This document shows, one piece after another, positions 10,680 to 62,934 of a DNA stretch of 62,934 nt. The notes beneath the pieces were generated by a model. That model made no database searches, had not been told where the DNA came from, and worked only from the letters and a program-made list of their open reading frames with translations. The stretch comes from Candidatus Omnitrophota bacterium. Its GTDB lineage: Bacteria; Omnitrophota; Gorgyraeia; Zapsychrales; Fredricksoniimonadaceae. Made by a program: the position numbers and the translations under genes. The DNA lies in assembly GCA_015232565.1 (NCBI GenBank), contig JADFZK010000012.1:1-62934 (forward strand), read 5' to 3'. Position 1 is the stretch's first letter; every line of letters begins with the position of its first letter.

Positions 10680-10689
10680 AGGGAAATTA

Positions 10690-30331: not shown

Positions 30332-30387
30332 TTGACAGCCAAACTTTTTCGTAGTACACTCCGAATTGGTCAGACTAATTCGTAGCG
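30332..30387 (+). promoter_or_regulatory. Near-consensus sigma70 promoter plus downstream palindrome; direct-repeat copy 1
   Basis: TTGACA-17nt-TACACT followed by CGAATT-N9-AATTCG; 49/56 identical to 31628-31683. Confidence 0.75.
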
Positions 30388-30395
30388 AGGTACAT

Positions 30396-39539: not shown

Positions 39540-40483
39540 GAATTGTATTCTTTGGTTGTGACGATTTTGCGGTGGTTAATCTTAAGCGTTTGGTCGCCGA
39601 GGGGCATACTATCGCCGCGCTGGTAACCCAGCCCGATAAACCTAAAGGCCGCGGGTTACATACGGTCTACTCGCCCACTAAAGCACTGGCGTTGCAGTTA
39701 TCGGTTGAGGTTATTCAGCCGGTTGACCTTAAAGATCCGGCAGTGGTCAGTCAATTAAGAAGTTATAACGCCGACGTGTTTGTGGTGGTGGCTTACGGCA
39801 AGTTCTTGCCGGAGGCGGTCTTGAAGCTCCCGCAATATTTCTGCGTAAATGTGCATCCTTCGCTCTTGCCCCGCTATCGTGGGGCTGCGCCGGTAAACTG
39901 GGCAGTAATTAACGGCGACCGGGAGACCGGGGTGACTTTAATAAAGATGGACACGGCCATGGACGGCGGAGATATCCTGGCGCAGGAGAAATATCCGCTG
40001 TCGGCCGCTATGAATTCGGCGGTATTGCGTGAACAGCTGGCGGTTCTGGGAGCGGATATGCTGGCGCGTGTTTTACCGTCTATTCCTGAAGGCAGGTTCA
40101 CTTTGTTAAAACAGGACGGCAGTCTGGCGACCCGGGCGCCCAAGCTGCCCAAAGAGCTGGGGCACATTCAGTGGGGATGGCCGGCCGAAAAGATTTATGA
40201 CCTGGTGCGGGGCACCCAGCCCTGGCCGGGAGCGTATACGTTCTTAAAAGGCGCTTTGCTCAAGATATTGGAGGTGGTGCCGGTTGAGCCCGGCGTGGCG
40301 GGCGGGCCGGCCGCGGCGGCTCGTGCGGGTGAGATAATCGAATTACATAAAGACGGTTTCTCGGTGCAGGCTGGCGACCGGGCTTTGTTAATAAAACGGG
40401 TGCATCCGGCCGGCGGCAAGCCGATGGACGCCCGCCAGTTCCTGGCCGGGCATAAATTGCAGGCCGGCGATATTCTTGGTTAA
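39536..40483 (+). CDS. fmt: Methionyl-tRNA formyltransferase
   Basis: RIVFFG, VTQPDKPKGRG, VVAYG, NVHPSLLPRYRGAAP, MDGGD, PWPGAY. Confidence 0.95.
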   Translation: MRIVFFGCDDFAVVNLKRLVAEGHTIAALVTQPDKPKGRGLHTVYSPTKALALQLSVEVIQPVDLKDPAVVSQLRSYNADVFVVVAYGKFLPEAVLKLPQYFCVNVHPSLLPRYRGAAPVNWAVINGDRETGVTLIKMDTAMDGGDILAQEKYPLSAAMNSAVLREQLAVLGADMLARVLPSIPEGRFTLLKQDGSLATRAPKLPKELGHIQWGWPAEKIYDLVRGTQPWPGAYTFLKGALLKILEVVPVEPGVAGGPAAAARAGEIIELHKDGFSVQAGDRALLIKRVHPAGGKPMDARQFLAGHKLQAGDILG

Positions 40484-40499
40484 TCCTGGAGGGTTCTTC

Positions 40500-42011
40500 A
40501 TGTTGCAGAAGGCGGTCTTGATAGTAAAGGTGCTTTGCGCGGCTTTGTTGCTGGTTATTGCGGCGCAATTGCTGGCCTACCATTACCGGTTCATTGTTTA
40601 TCCTTTTCCGAATGAATATCGGGAAGGGGCGGTTATGACCACGACTGCCGGCCTGGTGCGCGGGGTGAACCCTTACGACCTGGGCAATCAGCCGCAGTAC
40701 ATGAACGACTATGGTATTTTCTATTCCATTGTGGCTTATCCTTTCGCGAAAGTGTTTGGCGTTACCATGCTGGTGCACCGGCTGGTGACGGCGTTCTTCA
40801 TTTTTGCTTGTTGCGGGTTGATGTTGTGGGTAATGCGCCGCCGGGGGGCCGACTGGTTGCTGAGCGCGGTGGCGCTGGTGATCTTTTACGCCGGGTGTGT
40901 GTATCCGGGCACGACCACGCCCATGGCGAACCCTTCCTCGCTGGGGGTCTTTATTTTTCTATGCGCTTTGTTCGTGCCGTGGTCCCGGGGGTTCTCGTAT
41001 CCAACCTTGTTCCTGAGCGCGGCTTTAGGTATTCTGGGTTATTACACCAAACCGTATTGCCTGTTAAGCGTGCCGATGATGGCTTTGTATCTTTTTCTTT
41101 TCGTGTCGAAAAGGAAGGCGTGCGTTTTTTCCGCGGCCGTAGCCGTGCTGGGGGTTCTGAGTATTCTGTTCGTGGACCGGGTCTGGAACTGTTATTTTGC
41201 CAATTGCTTCTTTCTGCATACCAATCCGGGCTGGATGTCCTGGCGGCATTCAGTGGTACAGCTAAAGGCATTTATTAATTTGAATAATATGGTGCTTTGG
41301 GCCTCGGGGGCGGCTTTGGCGGCGCAGGTGTTTCTGGTGCGGCAGGATCTGCTTAAGATCTGGCGTGAGCGCCGGCCGTTCTCGTTTGTGCTGTATTGCG
41401 CCCTCATCTGTTCTTTAGTGCTGATATTTTTTCTGGGTAAGCATGAAGAAGCTTATTTGTGGTATTACTTTCATCTGGTGTCGCCCTTCCTTTTGATCTG
41501 CATGGCGGTTACCTTGAGCCGGCATATGTCGTGGGCTTGGATCTTTCTGCCTATGTTGTTGTGGAACTGCTGGACGTTCAGCCGTGCGCCTTTGAATATT
41601 CAGTTCGACGCCAACGACCAGAATTGGCTGAATATGAGGGAATTGATCAAGTCGCATAAGGACATTCTTAACTCGCCTCTTATTGCCCCGCTCCTGGTTG
41701 AGAATAACCTGCCGGTGTACGACAACGGTTTATCGGAATATTTCAAGAAGGGCGCGTTCCGGGAAAACGAGCTGGTTAAGATATTCTCCAAAGGCGATCC
41801 CCGGATCATGATGCGGTATTACGTTTATTTAAACGAAGTGCGGGGGAAGATCAAACGGCGCGAGTTCGACCTGGCTATCCTGGCTTTCGATTACTCGCCG
41901 CTGGTGCCGGGCGAGCTGACCCAGTACTATCGTCCGCTGGGCCAGGTGGTCCTTAAAGCGCCGTCGATCGGCGATTGGAAAATGAGCGTGTGGGTGCCGA
42001 ATGACAAATGA
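40500..42011 (+). CDS. Polytopic membrane protein, putative GT-C glycosyltransferase
   Basis: EYREG, YGIFY, TKPY motifs; ~11 TM segments and a soluble C-terminal domain. Confidence 0.5.
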   Translation: MLQKAVLIVKVLCAALLLVIAAQLLAYHYRFIVYPFPNEYREGAVMTTTAGLVRGVNPYDLGNQPQYMNDYGIFYSIVAYPFAKVFGVTMLVHRLVTAFFIFACCGLMLWVMRRRGADWLLSAVALVIFYAGCVYPGTTTPMANPSSLGVFIFLCALFVPWSRGFSYPTLFLSAALGILGYYTKPYCLLSVPMMALYLFLFVSKRKACVFSAAVAVLGVLSILFVDRVWNCYFANCFFLHTNPGWMSWRHSVVQLKAFINLNNMVLWASGAALAAQVFLVRQDLLKIWRERRPFSFVLYCALICSLVLIFFLGKHEEAYLWYYFHLVSPFLLICMAVTLSRHMSWAWIFLPMLLWNCWTFSRAPLNIQFDANDQNWLNMRELIKSHKDILNSPLIAPLLVENNLPVYDNGLSEYFKKGAFRENELVKIFSKGDPRIMMRYYVYLNEVRGKIKRREFDLAILAFDYSPLVPGELTQYYRPLGQVVLKAPSIGDWKMSVWVPNDK

Positions 42012-43208: not shown

Positions 43209-43234
43209 AATGTAAGAGAACGCGACAATTGATT

Positions 43235-43440
43235 GACGTCGCCCAATGCTATGCCAACCGGGGGACATGATGCCCCGCCGCGGACAGCAATGAGCGGGGC
43301 TTCGTGTCCCCCCTAAAGGGGCCAGGGCCAAGCCGCCTGACAACCCCTCTACCAACGAATGTGAAAGCGACCCAGGTCTCAACCCCAACGCCAAACGCCC
43401 CAAACAACGCCAAACACCCCCAAACACCCCCAAACACCCC
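43235..43440. repeat. Palindromic repeat element, intergenic copy with (CAAACACCCC)n tail
   Basis: Matches 44241-44385 and 62867-62934; hairpin GGGACATGATGCCCCGC/GCGGGGCTTCGTGTCCC; three exact CAAACACCCC units at 43411-43440. Confidence 0.8.
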
Positions 43441-43599: not shown

Positions 43600-46500
43600 A
43601 TGCGCAAGATCATTGTATTTATAACTTTGCTGTGTTTTATGTTCACCGGGAGCGGTGTGCCCGTGGTTCTTGGTGCGCAGGGTAATGTTTTGCCTGCGCC
43701 CGGCCAGATCATGCAATTAAGCCCCGAGTTCCGTCCCGCTGTACTAAAAGGCCTGAAAGTTTATCCGAACTCACCTTTGCGCCTGGACTTTATTGAGGAC
43801 TCCGGTGATCATCGTGAACTGGCGGGGGAGGAAGGTGCGCTGGCCCGCAAGAACGAATCGGCCCGGCTGGTGCAGTATTTTCTGGCCGCTTTGACTACTC
43901 CCGAGAAAGACCTGTGGGTTAATTTGTCGCCGTATGAAGCCGAGCGGATAATTCCGGAGGCCTTCGGCCAGACGGCCATGGGGCGGGATCTGCTGGAGCA
44001 GGATAATGTGCTTAAGCAGATAACCGCGTCTTTGCTTTATCCCGAAGGAGACACGGGCAAGGTCTTCTGGCAGAAAGTGTATGCCGCGGCATACGCTAAA
44101 TATGGCACCACCGACATGCCGTTCGATACCTTCAACAAAGTCTGGATCGTACCACAATATGCGAAAGTTTATGAGCATGGTGACACCGCCTTCATAGTGA
44201 ATGCCAAATTAAAATTAATGCTGGAGAAAGACTATTTAGCGACGTCGACCAATGCTATGCCAACCCTGGGACATGATGCCCCGCCAGCGGATACCAATGA
44301 GCGGGGCTTCGTGTCCCAAAGCCGGCTGCCAACCCCTCAACCAACGAATGTGAAAGCAACCCAGGTCTCAACCCCAACGCCCAACCACCCAAGTGCCCCA
44401 AGTACCCCAAACCAACAAAACGACATTGCCCGGGACGTCCTGCGCGAGGTTGTGATCCCGGTACTGGAACATGAGGTTAATGAGGGCGCTAATTTTGCCC
44501 CTTTGCGTCAGGTGTACGCCTCGCTGATCCTGGCCCTGTGGTACAAACAGCGCATGAGGCACGACCTCCTGGGCCGGGAATATGCCGACCGGAATAAAGT
44601 TTCCGGCATCGAGATCGGGGAGAAAGACGCTAAATCCCGGGTTTATCAAAGCTATCTGCAGGCTTTTCGGCAGGGTGTTTATAACTACATAAAAGAAGAG
44701 GCCGATCCGGGTACCGGTGAGATTATTCCGCGCAAATATTTCTCCGGCGGGTTTCTGGTTCCTACGGGCTTTAACATTGACCTGGACGCCAGTGCGGCCG
44801 GCAATGATATGCGCGTAAAAGCCGGCCAGCTTCTGGTAGTTGATCTGGGGACCGATAACGGTCCGGGCGTTGAGGAACAACCGGCAAGAGCCGCACGATC
44901 GCTAAGGCCCTGGGGTCTCATCAGGCGGGTAAGGTCCGGCAAAGAGACGGCTGAGCAGCGCGATAATGCCGCGTTCTCGGAAGAGGCCTTGACGCATCCT
45001 TTGGCCAAGGAAATTTACGGCAAGATAAAAGAAGCGGTGGGCGGGTTGGCGCAAGATGCTTTGGTGAAAGGTCCGCTGGCGGATCTGCAGGAGTTGTTTC
45101 AGTCTATGACGGACAATGAGTGGCGTTTGCTGGCAGGTGTGCCGGATTATTTTCGGGAGCATTTATATTCCAGCGATTCTGTTCCGCAGGATGTTTCTGC
45201 GGATGGTGTTGCTCTGGACCTGAGAACGCTATTGGAGGCTATGGGGACTGCTTTTGACCGGCTGACGACCTTGGAGAATTCGGGGGTATTCTCTGGCGAG
45301 ATACAGGCTTTCTTCGACCGGAATGTGGCGTTAGATGTTTATGTGCGGGCAGAAGACCTTGAGCAGGAAGTAATGCATGCCGGACGACGTATTCTGGGCA
45401 TGTATGTTAAAGGCAAGATCAATTTAGCGGAAGCCGAGCTATTGCTTCAGGAATGGACCAATAAGCTTTACCGGAATCGTCAGCAACTAGGCGCTGTTTT
45501 ACAAGCTCTGGATCTGCCGGGAACTTCGGTTACTAAAGAGATCCGCCAGCTTACGGTGCGAGTATTGGGGTTTGCCGATGAAAAACAGATAATTATTGCT
45601 CCGAGTGTATCCGGTTTGGCCTGGTTCTTGTGGTCGGGCTTGGATATTGATCATAAGCATCAGGGAAGCGCTTTTAGCCTGATGGATGAACAGGGAAGGA
45701 GTGTGCCGGTTGCGGTGGTGGCGGGTGATCAAAGGCCTTTTCATTTAGCCAGGGTCATAATTCATGAGGCATCCCATATGGAGTCGGATAAAAGAGAGGA
45801 AATGAATACGGAATTTGAGCGTGTTTTAAATGAGGGTTTTCAGGCCTACCGGGAATATGCTATTTGGAAAAAGGTCATGGAAGCGGCAGGTGAGGACTTG
45901 AGGGTCAATATGCTTGAGATGATCAATGCCGAGTATAAGGTAAAAACTGCTGGTCAGAGTGGCTATCCAATTGTGCGAATAGCTTTGTCTAAACTTGCTG
46001 TGTTATTGCAGAATACTTCCTATGTATGGGAGAACAGGATCGTGCGGCAGCTCTTGACGTTTATTATTCAGAAGCCGCAAATAAGCCTTGAGGGAGGAGC
46101 GGACAACCCGGAGCTTAAGGCGGTCTTTTTGAAAAGAGATTTTGGAAGATTGCGCGCCGCACTGGGGCCTAACCGGTTTGAGGTTATAAGTTCTATTGTT
46201 AATCGCTGGGCACCTGCGGTGTCGAGTAATGGCGGCATAAGGAGCTTTGTGATGAGTGAATGGGTGTTAAGTTCGGCGTTGTTGGTCCCGGGCGAAGATG
46301 TTTCTGAGGAAATAGCCGCCAAAATATCTAAAGTCAGAATGGTTTTAGGTGAGGAATTCAATTCGCCCAAGGTTCCTTTTAAAGGACCGTATGTAGTAGA
46401 TAAAGTAAAGTGGCCGGCGGATCTGGTGAAGGAATTTGTGGCGGTAACCAGCCGCTATCTGACCGATGAGATTACATTGGACCAATGTCGGGCATTGTTC

Positions 46501-46776
46501 GTGCAGATCCGGGACCGGTCCCAGGCGGCCGATCCTTCGGCGGTTGCTGGCCAGCCGGGCGCCCTGGACAGTGCGGCCGATATGCGTTTGGAGAAAGGCG
46601 GTATCGACTTCTCCGCGGAGCGTACCAGGCTGGACGTGAGTTCTGACCCTGCCGGGAGTGGCCGGTTATTCAACCCGGAGGCTTTACCGGAGGTTGGAAT
46701 CGACCGTCTTTACATCAAGAGTATTAACGTCCGTCCTTTGGTAAATCTGCCGCAAATGTTAGGCCTGCCGGGATAA
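43600..46776 (+). CDS. Modular exported protein A (conserved N-domain + gluzincin-like cargo + GGID C-module)
   Basis: Signal-like N-terminus; LWVNLSPYE, MGRDLLEQD, FNKVWIVP, IPRKYFSGG; HEASH-x18-E (LNEGF); GGIDF. Confidence 0.85.
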   Translation: MRKIIVFITLLCFMFTGSGVPVVLGAQGNVLPAPGQIMQLSPEFRPAVLKGLKVYPNSPLRLDFIEDSGDHRELAGEEGALARKNESARLVQYFLAALTTPEKDLWVNLSPYEAERIIPEAFGQTAMGRDLLEQDNVLKQITASLLYPEGDTGKVFWQKVYAAAYAKYGTTDMPFDTFNKVWIVPQYAKVYEHGDTAFIVNAKLKLMLEKDYLATSTNAMPTLGHDAPPADTNERGFVSQSRLPTPQPTNVKATQVSTPTPNHPSAPSTPNQQNDIARDVLREVVIPVLEHEVNEGANFAPLRQVYASLILALWYKQRMRHDLLGREYADRNKVSGIEIGEKDAKSRVYQSYLQAFRQGVYNYIKEEADPGTGEIIPRKYFSGGFLVPTGFNIDLDASAAGNDMRVKAGQLLVVDLGTDNGPGVEEQPARAARSLRPWGLIRRVRSGKETAEQRDNAAFSEEALTHPLAKEIYGKIKEAVGGLAQDALVKGPLADLQELFQSMTDNEWRLLAGVPDYFREHLYSSDSVPQDVSADGVALDLRTLLEAMGTAFDRLTTLENSGVFSGEIQAFFDRNVALDVYVRAEDLEQEVMHAGRRILGMYVKGKINLAEAELLLQEWTNKLYRNRQQLGAVLQALDLPGTSVTKEIRQLTVRVLGFADEKQIIIAPSVSGLAWFLWSGLDIDHKHQGSAFSLMDEQGRSVPVAVVAGDQRPFHLARVIIHEASHMESDKREEMNTEFERVLNEGFQAYREYAIWKKVMEAAGEDLRVNMLEMINAEYKVKTAGQSGYPIVRIALSKLAVLLQNTSYVWENRIVRQLLTFIIQKPQISLEGGADNPELKAVFLKRDFGRLRAALGPNRFEVISSIVNRWAPAVSSNGGIRSFVMSEWVLSSALLVPGEDVSEEIAAKISKVRMVLGEEFNSPKVPFKGPYVVDKVKWPADLVKEFVAVTSRYLTDEITLDQCRALFVQIRDRSQAADPSAVAGQPGALDSAADMRLEKGGIDFSAERTRLDVSSDPAGSGRLFNPEALPEVGIDRLYIKSINVRPLVNLPQMLGLPG
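44241..44415 (+). repeat. Palindromic repeat element inserted in frame in protein A
   Basis: Encodes ATSTNAMPTLGHDAPPADTNERG...PTNVKATQVSTPTPN, absent from paralogues B and C. Confidence 0.8.
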
Positions 46777-46819
46777 TTTCACATTTATTTTTAGCCTTTT
46801 TTCCTTCACAGCGACGAGC

Positions 46820-46837
46820 CGGGAAAGCGCTTTCCCG
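46820..46837. other. 18-bp perfect palindrome between paralogues A and B (terminator or operator)
   Basis: CGGGAAAGCGCTTTCCCG followed by TTTT. Confidence 0.5.
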
Positions 46838-46902
46838 TTTTGCCCCAAACGCCCTTCTCAAATGCCATTTTGTAGTAAATACTTGTTACGGGAGTGGATA
46901 CT

Positions 46903-49900
46903 ATGGCTAAACGGACGTTAAGGTCACAGGGTGCTTTTGATCCGGATCGTTTTATTGCCAGATCCGGTTTTGATCGGCTGCGTTTTGCCCGGCTGGTCCT
47001 GGGTTGGCTTTTTCTTTTTCAGGCTTTTTGTCCGCCTGGTTTGGCCGGAGCGGCTGGTGTGCCGGCGCTGACTTTGCCGGCAGTTACCCTGGCCGGGGGC
47101 GTAAAGCCGTTTGAACCTTGTCGGCTTAAGGGCCTGCGCATTCATCAGGACAATGCTTTTCGCCTGGACTTCCTTATTGATACCGGCAGTTCCACAGCGC
47201 CCAATGATATTAACGAAGAGAAAATATCCCGGCAGGTGCGCTATTTTATGGCGGCGCTGACCATGCCTCAGCGCGAGCAGTGGGTGAACCTATCCCCGTA
47301 TGAGCAGGAACGGATAATGCCGGAAGCTTTTTCCCTTACCGAAATGGGCCGTGATCTGCTGGAACAGGATTATTTGCTTAAAAAGATCACCGCGTCCTTG
47401 CATGATCCCAAGAGTGAGGCCGGCAAGATCTTTTGGCAGAAAGTTTATGCCCGGGTCTTTGACAAGTATGGCACTACCGATATCCCGCTGGATACTTTTA
47501 ACAAGGTCTGGATAGTGCCGGACCTGGCGGTGGTCGAGGAAAAAGGATTTGTGGCTGTTATTAAGGAAAGCCACCTGAAGGTCCTGCTGGAAACAGATTA
47601 CGTCAAGCTGGGCCTGGGCGGAGCCGTAAACCATCCGGAAGAAAATATTGCTGACCTTACGCCCGGCATTGTGCGCGATGTGGCACGCGAGGTGCTTATT
47701 CCCATGATCGAGGAAGAAGTGAACCGCGGTGCGGCGTTTGCTCTTTTGCGTCAGGTGTATAGTTCTATGATCCTGGCGGTTTGGTATAAGGAAGTGATGT
47801 TGCAGAGGCTTCTGGGTCGGGATTATGTGGATCGGCAGAAAGTGAGTGGGATAGACCAGGTCGAGCCCGAGGCCAAGCAGGCGATCTATGAGCGTTATAT
47901 AGAATTATTTAAAAAAGGCGTGGTGAACATGGTGCAGGAGGAATACGACCCGTTTACCAGCGAGATGATTCCGCGCAAGTATTTCTCCGGCGGTTTTGAT
48001 CCATCCCAAATGTCATTAAAACGTATAGCCGCTTCGGCGCTGTCTTTGGGGTTGGTGGGGGCGGCTTTAGTGGCGCGCTTTGATTTAAGTTCGCAAAAAT
48101 CCGGCCAGAGCGGGCCGGCAGCTAAGCCGGCATCGGTAGCGTCGGTAACAAATATGCCGGCCATGACTCCGGAACAGGAGCGTCAGGTAGAAGTTTTTCA
48201 TGATGAGTTGTTAAAGATGCAGGGTGATGTACGGGCCATCGATTGGGGGCGGGATATTATTCTCCGTCCGGGGGTGGCGCCGCAGTACAAGGTGATAGCG
48301 TTCAAGATGTTGTGTGCTGTTATCCTTTCCCAGTCGGAAAGCATTAGCGGGGTGGGTGGTAAAATGCTGGGGCCGATCGAGGCGCTGGACGATAGTATCA
48401 GTCGGCAGGCTTTGGCCCGGGTGATGGATATCCTGGCGCGTAACGACCCGTTATTGTATGAACACGCCACGGAACATGTTGTTTACGTGATGCAATATCT
48501 TCATGATAATAACCCGGCGCTGTTGCGGTCATTTTTTGAGAAGATCGAGCTTAAGAATGTGGTGCATTTGATAGCCAAAGGCAACGGGCTCTACGCGATG
48601 GATTTCCGGACTACTTACAAATTGTATCATGACAGCCTGCAAAAATGGACTCGCTTGAACGGGACGCGGACACTGGGAGTGGAAGAATTCCTGAATAGCG
48701 TGGGCCTGCAGGGCATGGACATGGTGCCTTTTGTGGCCAATCTGGCGGCGTATGGATATTTGGATGATCTGATAAGCGACTCTCCGCTGGTTTTTGTGAA
48801 GGCCTTGCCGGGTTTGTGTTCCAAAGCGAACGAGAAAAGTTTTATCCTCGCCGCTCCGGCTTTGCAGAAAATGCTGCGTACGGAACGGGACGGGCGGATA
48901 AAAGGGATCCTTTGGCAGGTTTATGCCCGTTTGGGAACCAATGTGCCGGAAGCATTAAAGCAATTTATGCGCCTGAATGCGGACGTGTTCTTTGCCGGCG
49001 CGCCGGTGAAAGAGCGCACCGGACCGCTGGCCGAAATACAAGCCGGGGTGTCCCAGGCCGAGCTGGATTCGTTCCAGAAGGTGCCGTACTGGCAGATAGT
49101 AAATAAAGGGGTAATAAATGTCGGGGTGGCTTTTCAGGAATCTTCTTTGGCATATATCGAGCTGTTGAAGAAGCAAATGATAGCGCAGGGCTTCTCGGTG
49201 ACCCCGGGAAAGAAAAAACAGCAGTTCGAGGCGCGCTGGAAAGGCAAGATGTATTCCCTGCGGGTGATAGTGGGCAATGTGGATACTATTGTTGATTCAG
49301 AGCGGGCCGGTGTGTCGTTTGGCGTTGTATCTGCGCGGGGGCATTCTACCGAGATCAAGGATACAATGGAGGCGCTGTTTGGGCTTAAGAATGAGCGCGT
49401 TTTTGTTGGGGCGCCGGGGTCTTGCGCCAGCCGAAAGGTTTTGTATGATCTGTTGCATTCTTATCCCAATTCCCAATGGATAGTGCGTTCGGGACCAGAT
49501 AATGGTAATGACGCCAATTATTTGCTGGCGGGAACAAGCAAACGGAAGGGGGTCTTGCAAGCCCTGGCCGATGGGGTTCCAACATGGAAAGCCGCCAGTG
49601 AACAGTATTTGCCGCAGAACAGGTTTTCGTCGTATACGGATCCGGTGGCTTATTTGACCAGCCAGGCCAATAGCAAAGCGCCTTTGCCGCGTCTGTTGAC
49701 TGCTAATAATTATCCTTCAGACCATGGCCAGCTGACCCCCGGTGGTATCGACCTTAATCCGGCGACCCTGGCTCTTCAGCGGCAGGGTAATCTGAATTCT
49801 GCCGAGATCAGTCCGGCCATGGATAATGCCATGAATGTAGAAAGTTTGTACCCGGTCATGGTGGAAATGTACCCGCTGGGCGCGCAGTCTTTCGGGCAGA

Positions 49901-49908
49901 ATCCATGA
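46903..49908 (+). CDS. Modular exported protein B (conserved N-domain + putative His/Cys peptidase-like cargo + GGID C-module)
   Basis: GGAG RBS; TM/signal; WVNLSPYE, MGRDLLEQDY, FNKVWIVP, IPRKYFSGG; ARGHS...PGSCAS; GGIDL. Confidence 0.85.
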   Translation: MAKRTLRSQGAFDPDRFIARSGFDRLRFARLVLGWLFLFQAFCPPGLAGAAGVPALTLPAVTLAGGVKPFEPCRLKGLRIHQDNAFRLDFLIDTGSSTAPNDINEEKISRQVRYFMAALTMPQREQWVNLSPYEQERIMPEAFSLTEMGRDLLEQDYLLKKITASLHDPKSEAGKIFWQKVYARVFDKYGTTDIPLDTFNKVWIVPDLAVVEEKGFVAVIKESHLKVLLETDYVKLGLGGAVNHPEENIADLTPGIVRDVAREVLIPMIEEEVNRGAAFALLRQVYSSMILAVWYKEVMLQRLLGRDYVDRQKVSGIDQVEPEAKQAIYERYIELFKKGVVNMVQEEYDPFTSEMIPRKYFSGGFDPSQMSLKRIAASALSLGLVGAALVARFDLSSQKSGQSGPAAKPASVASVTNMPAMTPEQERQVEVFHDELLKMQGDVRAIDWGRDIILRPGVAPQYKVIAFKMLCAVILSQSESISGVGGKMLGPIEALDDSISRQALARVMDILARNDPLLYEHATEHVVYVMQYLHDNNPALLRSFFEKIELKNVVHLIAKGNGLYAMDFRTTYKLYHDSLQKWTRLNGTRTLGVEEFLNSVGLQGMDMVPFVANLAAYGYLDDLISDSPLVFVKALPGLCSKANEKSFILAAPALQKMLRTERDGRIKGILWQVYARLGTNVPEALKQFMRLNADVFFAGAPVKERTGPLAEIQAGVSQAELDSFQKVPYWQIVNKGVINVGVAFQESSLAYIELLKKQMIAQGFSVTPGKKKQQFEARWKGKMYSLRVIVGNVDTIVDSERAGVSFGVVSARGHSTEIKDTMEALFGLKNERVFVGAPGSCASRKVLYDLLHSYPNSQWIVRSGPDNGNDANYLLAGTSKRKGVLQALADGVPTWKAASEQYLPQNRFSSYTDPVAYLTSQANSKAPLPRLLTANNYPSDHGQLTPGGIDLNPATLALQRQGNLNSAEISPAMDNAMNVESLYPVMVEMYPLGAQSFGQNP

Positions 49909-50015
49909 TCTGAGGACAATTTTTTTTCGCCGCAAATTGGCAAAGTGGCGTTTTATGTTCTATACTTGCGCATAAGCTTGCATCTTTGGCTATCCAACAA
50001 TAACCTGAGGGGAAT

Positions 50016-53000
50016 ATGGACACAATTAAACGCTTTATTGCTGTATTAATTTTGGTGCCGTTTTTGCTGACCACGGTTACTCCGGTGGCAATGTCGGCGG
50101 ACTTGCCCTGGATGCCCCAGCCGGGCGCTATGGTGGGTTTGAGCGCGCCTTTTGTGCCGGCTCATCTTTGGGGCATGACCATCAAGCCCAATGAGCCTTT
50201 TAAGTTCGATTTTCTGGTTAAAAAAGGCGATGTGCTTCTTAATGAGGAGCAGAAACGAAGTGAATATTCCCGGCTCATCAAGTATTTCCTGGCCGCCCTG
50301 GCCATTCCGGATACCGATCAATGGGTGAACCTTTCGCCGTATGAACAAAACCGGATCGTTCCTGACAATTTCGGCCTTACCGAGATGGGCCGTGATCTTT
50401 TGGCGCAGGATTATCTGTTAAAACAGCTTTCTTCGTCTCTGACCGATCCGGGCAGTGAGTTGGGCCAGAAGTTTTGGGCTAATGTGTATGAGGAAGCTCA
50501 TAAGCGTTTCGGTACCACCGATGTGCCCGCCGATATGTATAGCAAGGTTTGGATAACTCCCGACAAAGCGGTGGTTTATGAAAAGAATAATACTGTTTAT
50601 ATACTGGAAAGTCATTTGAAGGTCATGACCGAGCAAGATTACCTGGCTGCTCAGCACAATAGCGCGGTCTCGCCGGCGGTCGTGCCCGATTCCCAGGCCA
50701 GGGAGTTGGCCGATATTTCTTCCCGGGTCTTGAAAGAGGTGATCATTCCCGCTATTGAGAAAGAAGTGAACGAGGGCAAAAGTTTTGCGCCTTTACGGCA
50801 GGTTTACAGCGGGATGCTTTTGGCTACCTGGTACAAGAAGGCCTTGAAAGAGTCAATTCTGGGCAAGCTATACGCCGACCGGAGTAAAGTTAAGGGCGTC
50901 GACCAGGATCCCCGTGCCAACCAGGAAATTTACGGCAAGTATGTTGAAGCGTTCAAAAAAGGCGTCTTTAACCTGATAAAAGAAGATGTGGACCGCAATA
51001 CCCAGGAAGTAATTCCGCGGAAGTATTTTTCCGGTGGATTTGACAATGCTTCGGCGGCGGTTATGAGCAAGGCAGACAATGTTGCGATAGTTGATCAAGC
51101 GCTTTCTAACGCCAGAGGAGGAAACACCGAGGTCGTGGAAGCCGATCTGGCGCGGGCCAATCAATTGGAGTGGAAGAGGCTTTACGGACGGCTTAATGGG
51201 TTAACGCCAGGCTCCAGGGTGAGTTTTAATTATGAAATGAAATACGGAACAGGAGAGACTGCGAGCGCTAAAGTTTCTGGTCAGGTGGTGGCTATTAATC
51301 CGGATAATGCTTTGCAGTTGAGAGTGACGAAAAGGGGTTCAAAGAGAACGGAATTGGAATGGTATAATTTCAGTAGAATTCAAGATAGTGTTTTGACTTT
51401 TGGAGTTCCCGGAGCGTCAGACGTGCCTAATGTGCCAGCCTCTGCAAATGACGGAGCGGCGGCGGTGTCGTTGTCGGACCGAATGATGGATGTGCCCCCG
51501 AGGGTTACAGTAATATCGGAAGCCATTCGTATTTTCAAGCGGTTGCCGGGTGCGCGTGGTTCGGACTTGAGCGTGGAGTTTCCTGCAAAATATAAGGGAG
51601 TTACGATTGAAGATGTTGGCGGCGTTTCGTACCTGATGTGGCGTAATAAAAAAGGAATACCGGAGAGGCTGGGGCAAGTTAAGTTTGGAAGATACGATAC
51701 TGAGGTTCATTCATATGTTCCCGATATGCTTTTAAGCGCCAGATTAAACAGGTCGGTTAAAAGCCGGGTTTTGTTGTCTGGGCAGGGAAGTCCGCTTAGG
51801 AAGACTTTGGCGCAACAGTGGTTAATGGAGCCGCAGGTATTGAAAAATGATGAGCCGATCGAGCACCGTTTGGGAGTAACGAAAGGACAGGGCGTGCGGT
51901 ATCTTTTTGAACTTCCTCCTGGCTATACGGATGGGAGAGTTCAACACGAGGATGATAAAGAATACATTATGGCCACCGATCCGCGGGGTATTCGCCGGAC
52001 CATGGGCTGGATAAGTGCTCATTTGGGGTCGGTGGAGGCGGTGCATTCCAATGTTAATGGCTTGCTTTGGGCGGCCCGGGCTAATGATACCGGCAAGACC
52101 AGTTTTAGCGTTCTGCCCAGCATGTTTGATAGAGATGAGAGGTCGTTAAAAAAGAGGCTTGCTCAGGAGTGGTTGTTTGAGCCGAAGTGGTATATTATGA
52201 ATGATGGTTATTCTGATCTACGGGTTGGAAAAGAAATTGTGGAGCAGATAGTTGAGCTTCCTTTGGGTTATTCCGACGGACGCATTGATATTAATGAATT
52301 TAATCTGCCTGTTGTGAGCGCGCGTTACAAAGGCGGCAAGCGTAGCGTCGTGGCTATATTTGAGTCTGGGGACATAATCAAGTTTAAGTCTATGATCGCT
52401 CACCTTGTTGTGGCGGCCAGAATTGTTAAGACCGGCAAGAGCCGGGTAGTTTTGGCTGGTAAAGATCGTCCATTAAGTCAGAGGATGTCCAGGGAGTGGC
52501 ATACGGAGCCGCAACAGGTTGGCTCGAATAAGACTGAGTGGGTTGCCACAAGAGTGCGCAGATGGCCAGGGATTGAGGTAGTGATTGAGGTTCCGGACTT
52601 ATATAGCGAACCGTTTCTAGTTAGCAACAAAAGCTTGGAAGGCGGATCATTTATCAAAGCATATAACAAGGCGGGAAGAATTGTTCCTTTGGGTCGGATC
52701 AACCTTACACGAACCAAACATCTTATGGTGCATTCATATGTTGAAGGCTTGATTTTTGCGATCAAGGATACTACTGAAACCAAGAATGTTAATGTGGTTT
52801 TGCAGTCCAGCGATAAGGCCGCGGGTGATGCAGATGCGGCAGTCACGACGGTGGCCGCCAAGGCGCCTACCGGCGGTATCGACCTGGCGCAATCCGCTTT
52901 GAGTATGCAGATCAAACGCGACGGGGCGGGCGTACCCCTGCCGGTCAGTCAGCAAGACCTGGACAGTATTCATATCGAAGGCCTGGTACCGGTGATCACC

Positions 53001-53048
53001 GGCATCCGGTCGGCCGTCAACGCGCCGCAGTTCTCGGCCTTGCCGTAA
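50016..53048 (+). CDS. Modular exported protein C (conserved N-domain + 4x ~112-aa repeat cargo + GGID C-module)
   Basis: Signal peptide; WVNLSPYE, MGRDLLAQDY, KVWITP, IPRKYFSGG; internal repeats; GGIDL. Confidence 0.85.
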   Translation: MDTIKRFIAVLILVPFLLTTVTPVAMSADLPWMPQPGAMVGLSAPFVPAHLWGMTIKPNEPFKFDFLVKKGDVLLNEEQKRSEYSRLIKYFLAALAIPDTDQWVNLSPYEQNRIVPDNFGLTEMGRDLLAQDYLLKQLSSSLTDPGSELGQKFWANVYEEAHKRFGTTDVPADMYSKVWITPDKAVVYEKNNTVYILESHLKVMTEQDYLAAQHNSAVSPAVVPDSQARELADISSRVLKEVIIPAIEKEVNEGKSFAPLRQVYSGMLLATWYKKALKESILGKLYADRSKVKGVDQDPRANQEIYGKYVEAFKKGVFNLIKEDVDRNTQEVIPRKYFSGGFDNASAAVMSKADNVAIVDQALSNARGGNTEVVEADLARANQLEWKRLYGRLNGLTPGSRVSFNYEMKYGTGETASAKVSGQVVAINPDNALQLRVTKRGSKRTELEWYNFSRIQDSVLTFGVPGASDVPNVPASANDGAAAVSLSDRMMDVPPRVTVISEAIRIFKRLPGARGSDLSVEFPAKYKGVTIEDVGGVSYLMWRNKKGIPERLGQVKFGRYDTEVHSYVPDMLLSARLNRSVKSRVLLSGQGSPLRKTLAQQWLMEPQVLKNDEPIEHRLGVTKGQGVRYLFELPPGYTDGRVQHEDDKEYIMATDPRGIRRTMGWISAHLGSVEAVHSNVNGLLWAARANDTGKTSFSVLPSMFDRDERSLKKRLAQEWLFEPKWYIMNDGYSDLRVGKEIVEQIVELPLGYSDGRIDINEFNLPVVSARYKGGKRSVVAIFESGDIIKFKSMIAHLVVAARIVKTGKSRVVLAGKDRPLSQRMSREWHTEPQQVGSNKTEWVATRVRRWPGIEVVIEVPDLYSEPFLVSNKSLEGGSFIKAYNKAGRIVPLGRINLTRTKHLMVHSYVEGLIFAIKDTTETKNVNVVLQSSDKAAGDADAAVTTVAAKAPTGGIDLAQSALSMQIKRDGAGVPLPVSQQDLDSIHIEGLVPVITGIRSAVNAPQFSALP

Positions 53049-53131: not shown

Positions 53132-53201
53132 GTGTTACAATTGCCCGATATGAGGCCAGAGGCCTGTTAATCTCTTTTATCCCGGGGCAATAACGGCAAG
53201 C

Positions 53202-54719
53202 ATGTCGATAGTACTCATTAACCCGAATCTGGTGGTGCAAAAGAGCGATCCGCTTACTACGGGTGTGGTGTATATGCCAGTCACGCTGGCGTATACTGCG
53301 GGCGCTTTGCGCGGGGCGGGCGTGCCGTTTAAAGTGATCGATAGTTATGGCCTGGCGCCGCTTAAGGCGCGCGCTGTCGGCGCTTTCTGGTGGTTCGGGC
53401 TTTCAGCCGCGGATATACTGGCTCGCCTGCCGTCGGACCCCACGGCGTTCATTCTCTACGCTATTAATCTTACTAATCATTTATCCACAGTTGCTATCGC
53501 CCGCAGTTTAAAGCAAGCTTTCCCGCAGGTGCCTTTGGTCATCCTGGAGAATCCGCACGCGGTTACTGCTTATTCCTTGAATGAAGTGAAGGCCGAGTTC
53601 TTTGCGGCCGGGGCGGATTTTATTCTGACCGGAAATTCCGAACGCTCGGCCGTGGAGCTGGCCCATTGCTGGTCGGGCGCTCTGCCGGTTGACAGCTACC
53701 GGGAGATCGCTGGATTGGGCACGCGCGAGTTTTATAATCCGCCGCGTCCGGCTTATGAGCTTGACGCTTTGCCCTATCCGGCCTGGGAGCTTTTCCCTTT
53801 GGCAAATTATTGGCGCTTGCGTTTTGCGCATGGGCCATTGACCGGCCGCCGATATTTGCCATTACTAACTTCCCGCGGCTGTCCGTATGCCTGCCGTTTT
53901 TGTGTTACGCCTGCGGTGGCGGAGCGGCACTGGCTGGGGCGGGAAGCGGCGGCGGTGGTTGACGAGATGGGCCACTGGCAAAAGACCCTGGGTGTGGACG
54001 AGTTCCATATTGAAGACCTTAATCCGACGGTATCCGAGGAGCGGATCCGCACTATGTGCCAGGCGATCATTGACCGGGGGCTTAAGCTCACCTGGAAGCT
54101 GGTGGCGGGCACCAAGGCCGAGACTATTAAAAGCGCCGCTACCGTGGAGCTCATGGCCCGGGCCGGTTGTCGTTATGTTTCCATATCGCCGGAAACGGGT
54201 TCCCCGCGGGTTTTACAAGCTATGAATAAACCTTTTGATGTGCCGCATGCCCTGGGTCTTTTAGGGTGGTTGCGGGCGGCGGGCATATTTTCCCAGGTGT
54301 GTTTTGTGATCGGCTTTCCCGGGGAGGAAGATGCCGACCGGGAGCTTACTGCGGCCCTGGTGCGGACCGCCGTGCGCCAGGGCGCGGATGAGATCGCGCT
54401 GTTTCTGGCCACTCCGGTGCCGGGCTCCGCGATATTTAAGGAATTAAATGGCTATCGCTCGCTTTCGGAGTTAAACTTTTCTCCGGTTTGGCGTGCGGAT
54501 TATGCCCGCTTGAATGCTTTTCGCGGACGGTTGTATTTGCGTTTTCTGTGGTGGAAGTTTTGGTGCCGTCCGGGCGCTTTGCTCGTACAGCCCGGGCGTT
54601 TTCTGGCGCGGCGGTTCGCGACCAAGATGGAAATGGTGCCGTATCGCGCTATCGTGCTGGCTGTGGCCGGCCGATGGGGGCATTTTATTGCAAGCCTTAA
54701 AGGAGAAAAGGCGTTATGA
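53202..54719 (+). CDS. B12-binding radical SAM protein
   Basis: YMPVTLAY, TSRGCPYACRFC, IEDLN, SPETGS, GFPGE. Confidence 0.85.
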   Translation: MSIVLINPNLVVQKSDPLTTGVVYMPVTLAYTAGALRGAGVPFKVIDSYGLAPLKARAVGAFWWFGLSAADILARLPSDPTAFILYAINLTNHLSTVAIARSLKQAFPQVPLVILENPHAVTAYSLNEVKAEFFAAGADFILTGNSERSAVELAHCWSGALPVDSYREIAGLGTREFYNPPRPAYELDALPYPAWELFPLANYWRLRFAHGPLTGRRYLPLLTSRGCPYACRFCVTPAVAERHWLGREAAAVVDEMGHWQKTLGVDEFHIEDLNPTVSEERIRTMCQAIIDRGLKLTWKLVAGTKAETIKSAATVELMARAGCRYVSISPETGSPRVLQAMNKPFDVPHALGLLGWLRAAGIFSQVCFVIGFPGEEDADRELTAALVRTAVRQGADEIALFLATPVPGSAIFKELNGYRSLSELNFSPVWRADYARLNAFRGRLYLRFLWWKFWCRPGALLVQPGRFLARRFATKMEMVPYRAIVLAVAGRWGHFIASLKGEKAL

Positions 54720-55612
54720 GCCAGCGTATCGTGGTGGCGATCCCTTGTTACAATGAAGAAGCGGCGATCGTGAATGTTATTGCCGACTTTCAGTTCAATC
54801 TGCCCGAGGCGGAAATACACGTGTTTAACAACGCGTCTACCGACCGCAGTGCGGAGCTGGCGGCCGGGGCGGGCGCGGTAGTCCACGAGGTTTGCCGCCG
54901 CGGCAAGGGCAATGTGATGCGCCAGATCCTGAATACTTTTATGGCCGACGCGATTATTATTGTGGACGGTGACGGCACTTATCTGGCCAAGGACGCGCGG
55001 CGCCTGCTGGCGCCGGTGCTGGCGGCTAAGGCCGATATGGCCGTGGGCAGCCGTCTGGAGAATGCCGATCCTACGGCGCTGGTGCAAATGCATCGTTTTG
55101 GCAATGAGGTTATTGTTTCGGCGATCAACCTGGCTTTTGGTACTTCTTTCGAGGATGTGCTTTCCGGTTATCGCTGTTTAAGCCGGCGCTTTGTGGAAGA
55201 GGTACCGCTGTTGACCCCGGGTTTTGAGACCGAGGTGGAGCTGACCCTGCAGGCCCTGGAGGACGATATGGAGATCGTCGAGATCCCGATATCTTACCGC
55301 AGCCGGGCCGCCAACAGCCATTCCAAGCTGAGGCCTTTTGCCGACGGCTGGCGGATAATCATCACTATTGCCATGTTATTAAGGGACCATTACCCCCTGC
55401 GGTTCCATTTTGGGGCCGGCGGGTTTTTGTTCATTCTGGCCGCGGCGCTGTTGCTGGGCCAGCAGGTCCTGATGGCGGCGTTCCTGGGCCTGGTGGGCTT
55501 TATGGTCATCGGGCAGGGTTTCTTGTTGAACACTATCGGAACCCGGTTCCGTGAATATAAACAGGTGGATCTACGTTTAAGGAGGTTCGAAGATGAGCGC
55601 AGGCGCAAATGA
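54716..55612 (+). CDS. GT2 glycosyltransferase with two C-terminal TMs
   Basis: IPCYNEE, NASTDRS, RGKG, VDGDGTY, DVLSGYR, GFETEVE. Confidence 0.88.
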   Translation: MSQRIVVAIPCYNEEAAIVNVIADFQFNLPEAEIHVFNNASTDRSAELAAGAGAVVHEVCRRGKGNVMRQILNTFMADAIIIVDGDGTYLAKDARRLLAPVLAAKADMAVGSRLENADPTALVQMHRFGNEVIVSAINLAFGTSFEDVLSGYRCLSRRFVEEVPLLTPGFETEVELTLQALEDDMEIVEIPISYRSRAANSHSKLRPFADGWRIIITIAMLLRDHYPLRFHFGAGGFLFILAAALLLGQQVLMAAFLGLVGFMVIGQGFLLNTIGTRFREYKQVDLRLRRFEDERRRK

Positions 55613-56510
55613 TTGTTTTGAGGCGGTCCCTTGCGGCGTCTGCGGGGCGGATGATTTCTCAATTGTTTATCCGGCGGATAATAAGGCCGGCCGGGTGGAG
55701 AATGTAGCGGAGACTTTCCGTTCTTCCGGCGATGAAAAACTTACCGACCAGCTGGTGCGTTGCCGGGTTTGCGGTTTTCAGTATTTGAATCCGCGCCTGA
55801 AGGCCAGCCTGGTCCTGGAGGGATATTCGGCCGGCGAGGATGCAACTTTTGTTTCCCAGGCAGTGTCGCGGGAAGAGACTTTTTTCGACGCTCTGGCCGC
55901 TATTGAAAGCATGGCACCAGCCAAGGGGCGGGTGCTGGACGTGGGCACGGCCGGCGGGTCTTTTCTGGCCGCCGCGCGCCGGCGGGGCTGGGAAACGGCC
56001 GGTTGCGAGCCCAATCGCTGGTTATGCGAGTGGGCCGGGAAAAGTTATGGCCTGCAGGTGACTCCCGGTACTATATTCGACATGAGCCTGGCGGAGGCTT
56101 CTTTCGACCTGGTAACTTTATGGGATGTGCTCGAGCATACTCCGGACCCGCGCAAGGTATTAACTGAATGCCGCCGGGTGCTCAAGCCCGGCGGGTTACT
56201 GGTGGTGAATTATCCCGATATCGGTTCGGCGGTGGCCCGGATGATGGGGCGGCGCTGGGTTTTTCTTTTGTCGGTGCATTTGTATTATTTCGATCAAAAG
56301 GCCATGGCGCGGATCCTTAATGAAACCGGCTTTACAGTTTTACAAAGCCGGCCGCATTGGCAAAAACTGGAACTGGATTATATTTTGTTCCGTATGCAGG
56401 CTTATATTCCGGTGGTCCCGGCTTTCTTCCGCAAGGTCTTTGCCGCGGTCGGCCTGAAGAACCTGAATGTCCCCTATTGGATGGGTCAGACCCTGGTAAT
56501 TGCAAAATAA
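55593..56510 (+). CDS. Class I SAM methyltransferase with N-terminal zinc ribbon
   Basis: CGVCG...CRVCG, VLDVGTAGG, WDVLEH, LKPGG. Confidence 0.85.
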   Translation: MSAGANDCFEAVPCGVCGADDFSIVYPADNKAGRVENVAETFRSSGDEKLTDQLVRCRVCGFQYLNPRLKASLVLEGYSAGEDATFVSQAVSREETFFDALAAIESMAPAKGRVLDVGTAGGSFLAAARRRGWETAGCEPNRWLCEWAGKSYGLQVTPGTIFDMSLAEASFDLVTLWDVLEHTPDPRKVLTECRRVLKPGGLLVVNYPDIGSAVARMMGRRWVFLLSVHLYYFDQKAMARILNETGFTVLQSRPHWQKLELDYILFRMQAYIPVVPAFFRKVFAAVGLKNLNVPYWMGQTLVIAK

Positions 56511-56517
56511 GGCGGTT

Positions 56518-57927: not shown

Positions 57928-57934
57928 GTTTTTT

Positions 57935-58594: not shown

Positions 58595-58596
58595 AA

Positions 58597-62162: not shown

Positions 62163-62934
62163 ATGATTAAATATAGCTTGTTTACTATATGGCGCAGGGT
62201 GATTGCGTCTTTTGTGCTGGTGGCGTTCCTGGTTAGTAATGGAGCCTGTCCGGTGGCCTTTGTGCATGCGCAGGAAGTTTCGGTCGTAACTCAACCCGGC
62301 AGTCTGGTGGCGTTGAGCCCCGCTTTTACTCCGCCTTTGTTAAAGGGCATCAAGGTTTATCCTTCCGATCCGTTGCGTTTCGATTTTATTCTGGATAAAG
62401 GTGATCTGGCGGGCAATGGCCGCGACCGTTCATTGCCGGACGAATCTTTACGTCTGATCAAATATTTTCTCGCCTCCCTGACCATTTCCGAGAAAGACCT
62501 GTGGGTCAATTTAAGCCCTTATGAGAAAGAGCGTATTGTGCCCGCGGACTTTGGCCGCACCGCAATGGGCCGCGACCTGCTGGAGCAGGATTATCTGCTG
62601 AAACAGGTTACCGCGTCCTTGCTTTATCCGGAAGGTGAGACCGGCAAACTGTTCTGGCAGAAGGTTTACGCCGCCGCGTACCAGAAGTTCGGCAGTATTG
62701 ACATTCCGGTCGACATTTTTAACAAAGTATGGATCGTGCCCGCCAAGGCAGTTATTTACGAGCCGCCAGCCAAGCCGTCCAGCCCGGGAGAAAAAAACAA
62801 CCCGCCGCCCGGCGCCTATGTGCTACAAAGCCGCCTAAAAGTAATGCTGGAAGCCGATTATTTAGCGACGTCGACCAATGCTATGCCAACCAGGGGACAT
62901 GATGCCCCGCCAGCGGATCTCAATGAGCGGGGCT
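62163..62934 (+). CDS. Modular exported protein D, N-terminal part (3' truncated by window edge; missing from ORF track)
   Basis: Manual translation: MIKYSLFTIWRRVIASFVLVAFLVS...LLKGIKVYPSDPLRFDFILD...DLWVNLSPYEKERIVP...MGRDLLEQDY...FNKVWIVP...LKVMLEADYLATSTNAMPTRGHDAPPADLNERG. Confidence 0.85.
   Translation, partial: MIKYSLFTIWRRVIASFVLVAFLVSNGACPVAFVHAQEVSVVTQPGSLVALSPAFTPPLLKGIKVYPSDPLRFDFILDKGDLAGNGRDRSLPDESLRLIKYFLASLTISEKDLWVNLSPYEKERIVPADFGRTAMGRDLLEQDYLLKQVTASLLYPEGETGKLFWQKVYAAAYQKFGSIDIPVDIFNKVWIVPAKAVIYEPPAKPSSPGEKNNPPPGAYVLQSRLKVMLEADYLATSTNAMPTRGHDAPPADLNERG
62867..62934 (+). repeat. Palindromic repeat element in frame in protein D (truncated by window)
   Basis: 64/68 identical to 44241-44308. 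Confidence 0.8.

Follow-up and report, generated by a model that had tools for sequence, protein, structure and literature searches.

Three complete tandem genes and the 5' part of a fourth lie on the forward strand of a 62,934-nucleotide stretch of contig JADFZK010000012.1 from a Candidatus Omnitrophota bacterium (assembly GCA_015232565.1; the whole stretch is referred to here as the window). All four share a signal peptide and an N-terminal domain of ~330 amino acids (aa), the N-domain, and the three complete genes end in a short C-terminal module, the C-module, that opens with the motif GGID. With about even confidence, these genes are read as paralogues within an undescribed family that spans the phylum Omnitrophota and consists of Sec-exported carrier-cargo proteins, in which a long middle, the cargo (~600 aa in the window genes), is enclosed between the two conserved parts. 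The window genes show the layout by which the family is defined, a signal peptide followed by the N-domain, with a GGID module lying no more than ~75 aa before the C-terminus; gene 4 is matched by its N part only, since the window end cuts it. N-domains and C-modules occur in two types, A and B, and the genes are composed as follows.

43570/43600..46776, + strand: gene 1, 1058 aa, type-B N/C pair, from the open reading frame (ORF) listing and translation; signal peptide, N-domain to 44754, ORFan cargo at 44755-46596, C-module at 46597-46773.
46894/46903..49908, + strand: gene 2, 1001 aa, type-B N/C pair; signal peptide, N-domain to 48003, cargo at 48004-49740, C-module at 49741-49905.
50016..53048, + strand: gene 3, 1010 aa, type-A N/C pair, nearest to the family consensus; signal peptide, N-domain to 51041, ORFan cargo, C-module at 52872-53045.
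62130/62163..62933, + strand: gene 4, 5' part only, a 3'-open ORF; signal peptide, then ~250 aa from the start of the N-domain, which contain the loop insert also seen in gene 1.

Database gene calls start gene 1 at MRKIIVF (43600) and gene 2 at MAKRT (46903). The N-domain carries the motifs WVNLSPYE, MGRDLLxQD and IPRKYFSGG, the last of which ends at 44751, 47994 and 51038 in genes 1, 2 and 3. When the parts of the genes are compared with the window by tblastn, the N-domains are mutually 42-48% identical (E about 1e-97 to 1e-100), with 58% identity between genes 1 and 4, and no further family copy appears elsewhere in the window. The middles of genes 1-3 give no cross-match against the whole window (all E > 0.4). 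GGID begins at 46597, 49741 and 52872, and the C-modules of ~55 aa resemble each other at motif level only. Against profile hidden Markov models (HMMs) of the family, genes 1-3 score 419-557 bits for the N-domain, and genes 1, 2 and 3 score 48.6, 41.7 and 88.7 bits, respectively, for the C-module. The gaps between genes 1-3 measure 107-126 bp and hold no ORF. Most of this had been proposed from the letters of the window (the sequence-only reading): three tandem genes and a fourth with a shared signal segment, N-domain and C-module, mutually unalignable middles, and no small immunity-like ORFs between the genes. ORF listing, tblastn and HMM searches bear out each of these points, and the positions then given for the end of IPRKYFSGG are exact. 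The proposal that the middles are AT-richer is marginal at best: it holds for gene 1 (51.1% vs 53.4% GC), fails for gene 2, where the values are equal, and in gene 3 applies only to GC at third codon positions, while the family-wide difference averages -1.5%.

The family extends far beyond the window. A profile built from the four window N-domains matches 8,235 representative clusters, 6,501 of them at E <= 1e-30, with lengths of 420-3,076 aa; the match is single and N-terminal in 150/150 among the matches listed. A search with P0003 returned more than 3,393 proteins of 578-1,713 aa among 8,000 candidates scored, with ~35% of the query covered, and every named source of these matches is Candidatus Omnitrophica/Omnitrophota. 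In a scan of species genomes, at least 588 loci were found, several per metagenome-assembled genome. Their titles are nearly all Omnitrophota/Omnitrophica, the exceptions being some 'uncultured Planctomycetales' (a generic label), one Elusimicrobia and one Ca. Elulimicrobium; taxon labels are those given in the database records. The family had been proposed to be lineage-specific, and the labels of all named matches and of nearly all genome loci agree.

The layout of an N-terminal head and a GGID tail holds across this census. A single GGI[DN][FLM] lies 40-75 aa before the C-terminus in 113 of 119 homologues. Among 80 fetched loci, the C-module was found by HMM in 60 of the 73 genes with an intact 3' end; the other 13 comprise five with a degenerate GGID tail, four split genes and four short or truncated ORFs. 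No C-module occurs in these loci without an N-domain gene upstream, and same-strand tandem arrays are present in ~25 of them. All-against-all clustering of the other ORFs in the 80 loci revealed no conserved partner gene, the best candidate being an ABC-F ATPase in 9/80.

The two ends of the protein are matched by type. The HMM scores of both ends have a bimodal distribution and correlate strongly (Spearman 0.85): 164 type-A and 83 type-B pairs are matched and 18 are mixed, the latter mostly near the thresholds. The type-A tail reads GGIDFAQSNLDMQIKRDGAGVPLP..IDGLVPVI..I.P. and the type-B tail GGIDL.P..L.L...F.P..L...GF.P.I..I.PL..L..FLGL. Both types adjoin in five loci, including this window, where genes 1 and 2 are type B and gene 3 is type A. 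These matched subtypes fit a functional pair of N-domain and C-module.

Neither conserved part has a recognisable relative. The whole proteins have no match in Pfam, NCBIfam, PADLOC or PHROGs. A comparison of 87 N-domains with Pfam at E <= 1 yields scattered noise only (DUF896 in 10/87, E >= 0.026), and the N-domain profile finds chance matches among PDB sequences, such as methyl-coenzyme M reductase (E = 0.02). AlphaFold2 predicts the head with confidence: for full-length gene 3 with 78 homologues, the predicted local distance difference test score (pLDDT) exceeds 90 for most of residues 30-290, is mostly 79-95 in the tail with ~60 in its middle loop, and falls below 50 in the middle of the protein. 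Modelled alone from 87 sequences, the N-domain reaches a mean pLDDT of 80 and a predicted template modelling score of 0.74. The model is an alpha/beta domain of long helical hairpins and three beta-hairpins, and the predicted C-module consists of three strands only. Polar residues that are invariant in the N-domain are, in gene 3 numbering, N105, S107, E110, R126, D132, K136, K177, D208, E250, N252, R261 and K274. Foldseek searches of the N-domain and full-length models against PDB, and of the N-domain against BFVD, return nothing significant. The best matches are colicin Ia (E = 0.058), NheA (0.05-0.14) and a white spot syndrome virus protein (0.018), all with template modelling (TM) scores <= 0.15, and none of the three was accepted as a fold relative. 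The N-domain fold is therefore novel in the sense of having no relative in the PDB and BFVD libraries. The literature searched contains no description of the family, and it belongs to none of the named families; the modules match no characterised family, and the middles of the window genes come out as unrelated.

Several lines of evidence suggest that the family works outside the cytoplasm. A hydrophobic N-terminal segment is preceded by Lys/Arg in 200/202 family N-termini, and the N-termini of genes 1-4 follow the signal-peptide layout of Lys/Arg, a hydrophobic stretch and a small-residue site. Since the Lys/Arg residues stand before and not after the hydrophobic segment, the orientation is N-in/C-out. 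Cysteine is scarce throughout, at 0.11% of residues in 242 cargos, 0.07% in the N-domains and 0.01% in the C-modules, compared with 1.18% in 374 neighbouring ORFs of the same loci, about ten-fold above the cargos. As many as 130 of the 242 cargos are free of cysteine (median 700 aa), and gene 3 has none in 1010 aa. Cysteine avoidance is a signature of proteins that leave the cytoplasm, especially as translocation-competent chains, and a ten-fold depletion argues against a purely cytoplasmic role. The window also encodes LptD, which indicates that the organism has an outer membrane that surface or secreted proteins must cross.

The cargos of genes 1 and 3 have zero relatives among 5.8 billion proteins, and a PDB sequence search of the three window cargos and of two motif regions in genes 1 and 2 found nothing. 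The following features can be placed within the cargos.

45763..45849, + strand: HEASH-x18-E (LNEGFQAY) motif in the gene 1 cargo, a sequence motif without support from database searches.
48010..48081, + strand: start of the gene 2 cargo, a Met followed by a signal-peptide-like hydrophobic segment (MSLKRIAASALSLGLVGAALVARF).
49333..49431, + strand: ARGHS...GSCAS His/Cys motif in the gene 2 cargo, read from the sequence and without support from searches.
51516..52859, + strand: tandem repeats of ~115 aa in the gene 3 cargo, 3-4 copies, each ending ...[QE]W[LH]xEP.

The spacing of HEASH-x18-E resembles the gluzincin zinc-protease signature at motif level, and ARGHS...GSCAS might, speculatively, be a cysteine-protease-like dyad. 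The sequence-only reading had named proteases and repeats as cargo. Proteases are unsupported, resting in genes 1 and 2 on these motifs with empty database searches, and repeats are confirmed in gene 3, where copies R1-R3 score z = 11-15 against shuffles. The same reading had the cargo being exchanged, which stands at the level of the family and falters within the window, where the genes are old paralogues (42-48% identity in the N-domain) with no clear recombination tracts, and where the cargos of genes 1 and 3 are ORFans. The rate of identical codons between genes 1 and 2 is mildly raised at the end of the N-domain (11/15), with no tract elsewhere.

A four-residue motif, D-x-A-M, marks the seams of the cargo in much of the family. 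It occurs 426 times in the cargos vs 25 +/- 4 in shuffles (17-fold), in 163 of the 242 cargos and at a median spacing of 180 aa, and often lies <= 60 aa from FSGG or <= 25 aa from GGID. Asp codons inside the motif follow background usage, the fixed Ala is mildly shifted to GCG/GCC, and the junction ATG is not preceded by a Shine-Dalgarno-like signal. Background codon usage and the missing ribosome-binding signal indicate that the constraint on D-x-A-M acts on the protein. Internal translation from the junction ATG was rejected on the latter ground, and DNA-level recombination boxes around the cargo are likewise unsupported, as codon identity is barely raised and the synonymous sites of D-x-A-M stay at background. 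The cargos of genes 1-3 lack the canonical motif and carry degenerate forms at the expected seams (DSAADM, DADAAV, NMPAM).

What follows the motif points to the origin of the cargo. Sec-, lipoprotein- or Tat-like segments stand directly after 8-10% of D-x-A-M sites, 3-4 times the rate after other Met residues, so that the Met has the appearance of the start of an ORF that was captured whole. The cassettes of P0204, P0022, P0048, P0163, P0197 and P0149 open with textbook-looking signals after D-x-A-M. These are of lipoprotein (..ALACGAGGC), Sec (..ASA|A) and twin-arginine (SRRDFLRK) type, which suggests that genes for exported proteins were captured whole and in frame. Among 57 other cargos, Pfam domains are found in a minority and are mostly nucleotide-dependent enzymes and signalling domains of cytoplasm type. 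They include receiver (Response_reg), methyltransferase, PPDK_N, GT2/GT5, HD, NUDIX, PRTase, metallo-beta-lactamase, HATPase_c and GH26 domains, with AvrB_AvrC in the cargos of P0050 and P0064.

In the carrier-cargo reading, the signal peptide would take the chain over the inner membrane. The alpha/beta N-domain and the matching beta-strand C-module would then provide a constant chassis for some step that follows Sec, which could be outer-membrane passage, anchoring or assembly. The enclosed cargo would be the variable working part outside the producer's cytoplasm, at the surface, in the medium or on a partner or prey cell. Whole ORFs would have been captured in frame as cargo and then diverged fast or been replaced, with N and C inherited as a pair. 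Export itself, the roles of N and C, the activity of the cargo and cleavage at the junction are all inferred here, and the cargo might be displayed, released or delivered into a partner cell. The sequence-only reading had likewise proposed an effector or display scaffold whose N- and C-modules handle export, anchoring or assembly; the signal-like N-termini and the cysteine depletion strengthen its export part, and the matched subtypes strengthen cooperation of the two ends.

Three points weigh against the carrier-cargo reading. Many relatives carry cofactor-dependent enzymes of cytoplasm type (methyltransferases, NUDIX, PRTase, GT2, receiver), which could not work in the periplasm or the medium. 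Exactly one hydrophobic segment is present in 27% of the cargos; were such single segments to cross the membrane, the side on which the C-module ends up would vary between members. An even/odd test of these segments showed no bias towards even numbers and hence no topological constraint. Finally, the pairing of N and C types may stem from common descent alone.

A more specific proposal is that the N/GGID pair serves as the address label of a new, Omnitrophota-specific export or delivery route. Whole captured ORFs, cysteine-free versions of cytoplasm-type enzymes among them, would pass through Sec and a second step, reach a prey or host cell and be freed by a cut at D-x-A-M. This proposal is tentative and, as a whole, rather unlikely. 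Similarly doubtful is a prey-directed poly-effector resembling the MARTX toxins, in which, after export, the two conserved modules bring the cargo inside a prey or host cell and the enzymes act there once the chain has been cut at D-x-A-M. Such delivery accounts best for the cytoplasm-type enzymes (Response_reg, methyltransferases, PPDK_N, NUDIX, PRTase, HD and the AvrB_AvrC of P0050/P0064) and for a junction motif that is 17-fold enriched, often placed at N/cargo and cargo/C junctions and conserved at the protein level. Cysteine avoidance fits translocation in an unfolded state, and the best, non-significant fold matches, colicin Ia and NheA, are helical pore-forming or translocating toxins. 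A predatory or parasitic life has also been proposed for Omnitrophota (PMC10066038; 10.1101/2023.11.21.568195). Against delivery into prey, the fold matches are at chance level (E >= 0.05, TM <= 0.15), ~80% of cargos have no recognisable enzyme domain, and no protease domain, translocon or cleavage was seen. The case is weakest for genes 1-3, whose cargos hold only the degenerate forms of D-x-A-M.

The family works most like three known systems that join constant targeting parts to variable cargo, namely MARTX toxins, type IX secretion cargo and polymorphic toxins, and it lacks defining features of each. In the MARTX toxins of Vibrio and relatives, conserved ends bracket exchangeable effector domains of cytoplasm type, with short processing sites and little cysteine. 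These toxins also possess glycine-rich RTX-type repeats at both ends and an internal cysteine protease domain (Peptidase_C80) that frees the effectors; they are secreted by way of a C-terminal type I signal and not by Sec, and their processing site is Leu-X. Like MARTX, the Omnitrophota family sets unrelated, exchangeable cargos, some of them enzyme domains, between conserved ends, is poor in cysteine and has a short junction motif. Unlike MARTX, it has a Sec-type N-terminal signal (200/202), a globular alpha/beta N-domain and a 55-aa tail of beta-strands, and its junction motif, D-x-A-M, at which the chain would be cut, differs from the Leu-X site. RTX/HemolysinCabind was not found in Pfam or NCBIfam searches of the three proteins and 87 N-domains. 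Peptidase_C80 gave no Pfam match either; gene 3 is cysteine-free, and the His/Cys motif of gene 2 is without search support.

Retention in the producing cell is decidedly unlikely. Here the N-terminal helix would be a membrane anchor, or the chain would be cut before export, and polyprotein cassettes would act in the cell's own cytoplasm or be re-exported by their own signals. The cytoplasm-type enzymes among the cargos agree with this, and the captured signal segments after D-x-A-M, which would need a cytoplasm to function, keep the non-exported polyprotein alive. It is nonetheless disfavoured, as the Lys/Arg residues before, not after, the hydrophobic segment give the orientation of a signal peptide, a ten-fold depletion of cysteine is unexpected in cytoplasmic enzymes, and the lack of a Shine-Dalgarno-like signal at the junction ATG makes internal initiation unlikely.

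Less probable still is that N and C alone work as a two-part unit, which tolerates at a permissive site an inserted cargo of largely neutral or selfish nature. The ORFan cargos of genes 1 and 3, the low pLDDT (< 50) of the gene 3 middle, the loop inserts that the N-domain tolerates as well, and the matched N and C types would all suit such a unit. A dispensable cargo is, however, hard to reconcile with open frames of 500-4,000 codons kept in thousands of members, with cysteine avoidance that runs through the cargo, with the still recognisable repeats of gene 3 and with relatives that carry intact enzyme domains at strong Pfam scores. Moreover, the 80 loci contain zero cargo-less intact genes, and the smallest cargo is ~160 aa.

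A classical polymorphic toxin or contact-dependent inhibition locus with immunity genes, which a constant N-terminal part, variable remainder and tandem paralogues might suggest, is largely refuted and very improbable, because the extreme C-terminus is conserved and not a variable toxin tip, the gaps of 107-126 bp are free of ORFs, no small neighbour is conserved in the 80 loci, and there are zero TPS, Rhs, LXG, PAAR or toxin matches in Pfam.

The family's likeness to polymorphic toxins such as CdiA, Rhs/YD, MafB and LXG proteins lies in its size, its constant trafficking part with a hypervariable remainder, and its tandem arrays of paralogues. It differs in that the variable part is internal, the conserved GGID module occupies the final ~55 aa and immunity genes are missing; the trafficking domains of these toxins (two-partner secretion or TPS, Rhs/YD, LXG, PAAR) are absent from the Pfam and NCBIfam results. 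Cargo proteins of the type IX secretion system (T9SS) of Bacteroidota offer a second parallel. In that system, a Sec signal and a conserved C-terminal domain on otherwise unrelated proteins direct a two-step export; the C-terminal domain is an Ig-like sandwich of 70-100 aa (TIGR04183/Por_Secre_tail), and there is no shared 330-aa N-domain. The Omnitrophota proteins likewise combine an N-terminal Sec signal with a shared C-terminal module, and they differ in having a shared ~330-aa N-domain and a three-strand C-module and in belonging to another phylum. Neither Por_Secre_tail nor TIGR04183 was found in the window proteins in Pfam or NCBIfam at E <= 1, and none of the T9SS machinery genes (PorK/L/M/N, Sov, PorU/V) lies within the 62.9-kb window. 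Features of type V secretion (a beta-barrel or TPS beta-helix) gave no Pfam match, and the AlphaFold model consists of helices and beta-hairpins without a barrel. Dockerin (PF00404), the C-terminal domain of cellulosome-type enzymes with its duplicated calcium-binding loops, also gave no Pfam match, the sole resemblance being a short internal duplication (NLDMQIKRDG / NLDNIRIDG).

Giant proteins have been described in Omnitrophota. Three papers describe 'Archaeovorins' and dockerin-type giants with signal peptides and/or transmembrane segments, strings of regulatory and metabolic enzyme domains and N-terminal regions without identifiable domains, for which an extracellular or prey-directed role is proposed (10.1101/2023.11.21.568195; 10.64898/2026.06.07.730766; PMC10066038). 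The proteins reported here measure about 1,000 aa in the window and 420 to at least 3,076 aa in the family, and in term searches of the same papers neither the N-domain nor the GGID tail nor the junction motif is mentioned. The modules are new ones on a general theme of constant targeting parts and variable cargo.

The N-domain itself has a variable loop, and an apparent relic of the family lies upstream of gene 1.

44230..44392, + strand: in-frame insert in the variable loop of the gene 1 N-domain (NAMPTLGHDAPPADTNERG...).
62790-62933: counterpart loop insert in gene 4.
43224..43403 / 43224-43437, + strand: intergenic fragment upstream of gene 1, 88-91% identical to the loop insert of genes 1 and 4.

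The intergenic fragment begins at the DYLA codons of the N-domain, which makes it look like a relic of a family gene; it holds a long hairpin (GGGACAUGAUGCCCCGCC...GGCGGGGCUUCGUGUCCC) followed by 3-4 CCCCAAACAC repeats. A miniature inverted-repeat transposable element was rejected as the source of the gene 1 insert in favour of a gene-fragment copy, since the intergenic copy starts with N-domain codons. Between genes 1 and 4 the insert is 93% identical and the flanking domain about 65-70%, which suggests gene conversion or a recent copy. The loop, between ...DYLA and ...EVIIP, carries different inserts in homologues from other genomes (P0073, P0081 and P0096), that of P0073 being related to the gene 1 insert. 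The P0096 loop contains 'VIPAQAGIH', a peptide typically seen when palindromic repeat elements are translated. Insertions seem to be readily tolerated in this loop.

Around the family genes, the window (1-43000 and 53200-61900) is a region of envelope glycan and lipopolysaccharide genes. It includes two UDP-glucose dehydrogenases, several epimerases, a DegT aminotransferase, an FkbM methyltransferase, GT9, GT4 and two GT2 glycosyltransferases and five radical-SAM enzymes, together with the following genes.

2462-4753: LptD.
10663-12069, + strand: long ORF of 468 aa without a Pfam match.
15740-16966, + strand: long ORF of 408 aa without a Pfam match.
20544-22340: MsbA-like ABC transporter.
30366-31553, + strand: AAA_14 and DUF4143 ATPase gene, which interrupts the biosynthetic run.
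40476-42011, + strand: long ORF of 511 aa without a Pfam match.
59763-61901: YfhO-like membrane protein.

The coding strand of the 511-aa ORF, which lies two genes upstream of gene 1, is very rich in T, as in genes for polytopic membrane proteins.

Omnitrophota, which are widespread, ultra-small and uncultivated, are thought to live on other microbes or to prey on them. The family is a candidate for the interface between Omnitrophota and their partners: it counts more than 8,000 clusters with several copies per genome, its head fold lacks a detectable relative, cysteine is strictly avoided, and the middles may be anything from ORFans to entire enzymes. Its two short conserved modules, four-residue junction motif and matched A and B subtypes offer handles for experiment. 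Should the modules define a new export or delivery route, secretion would gain a principle beyond the numbered systems; otherwise, the fast turnover of cargo within a fixed frame would still be striking.

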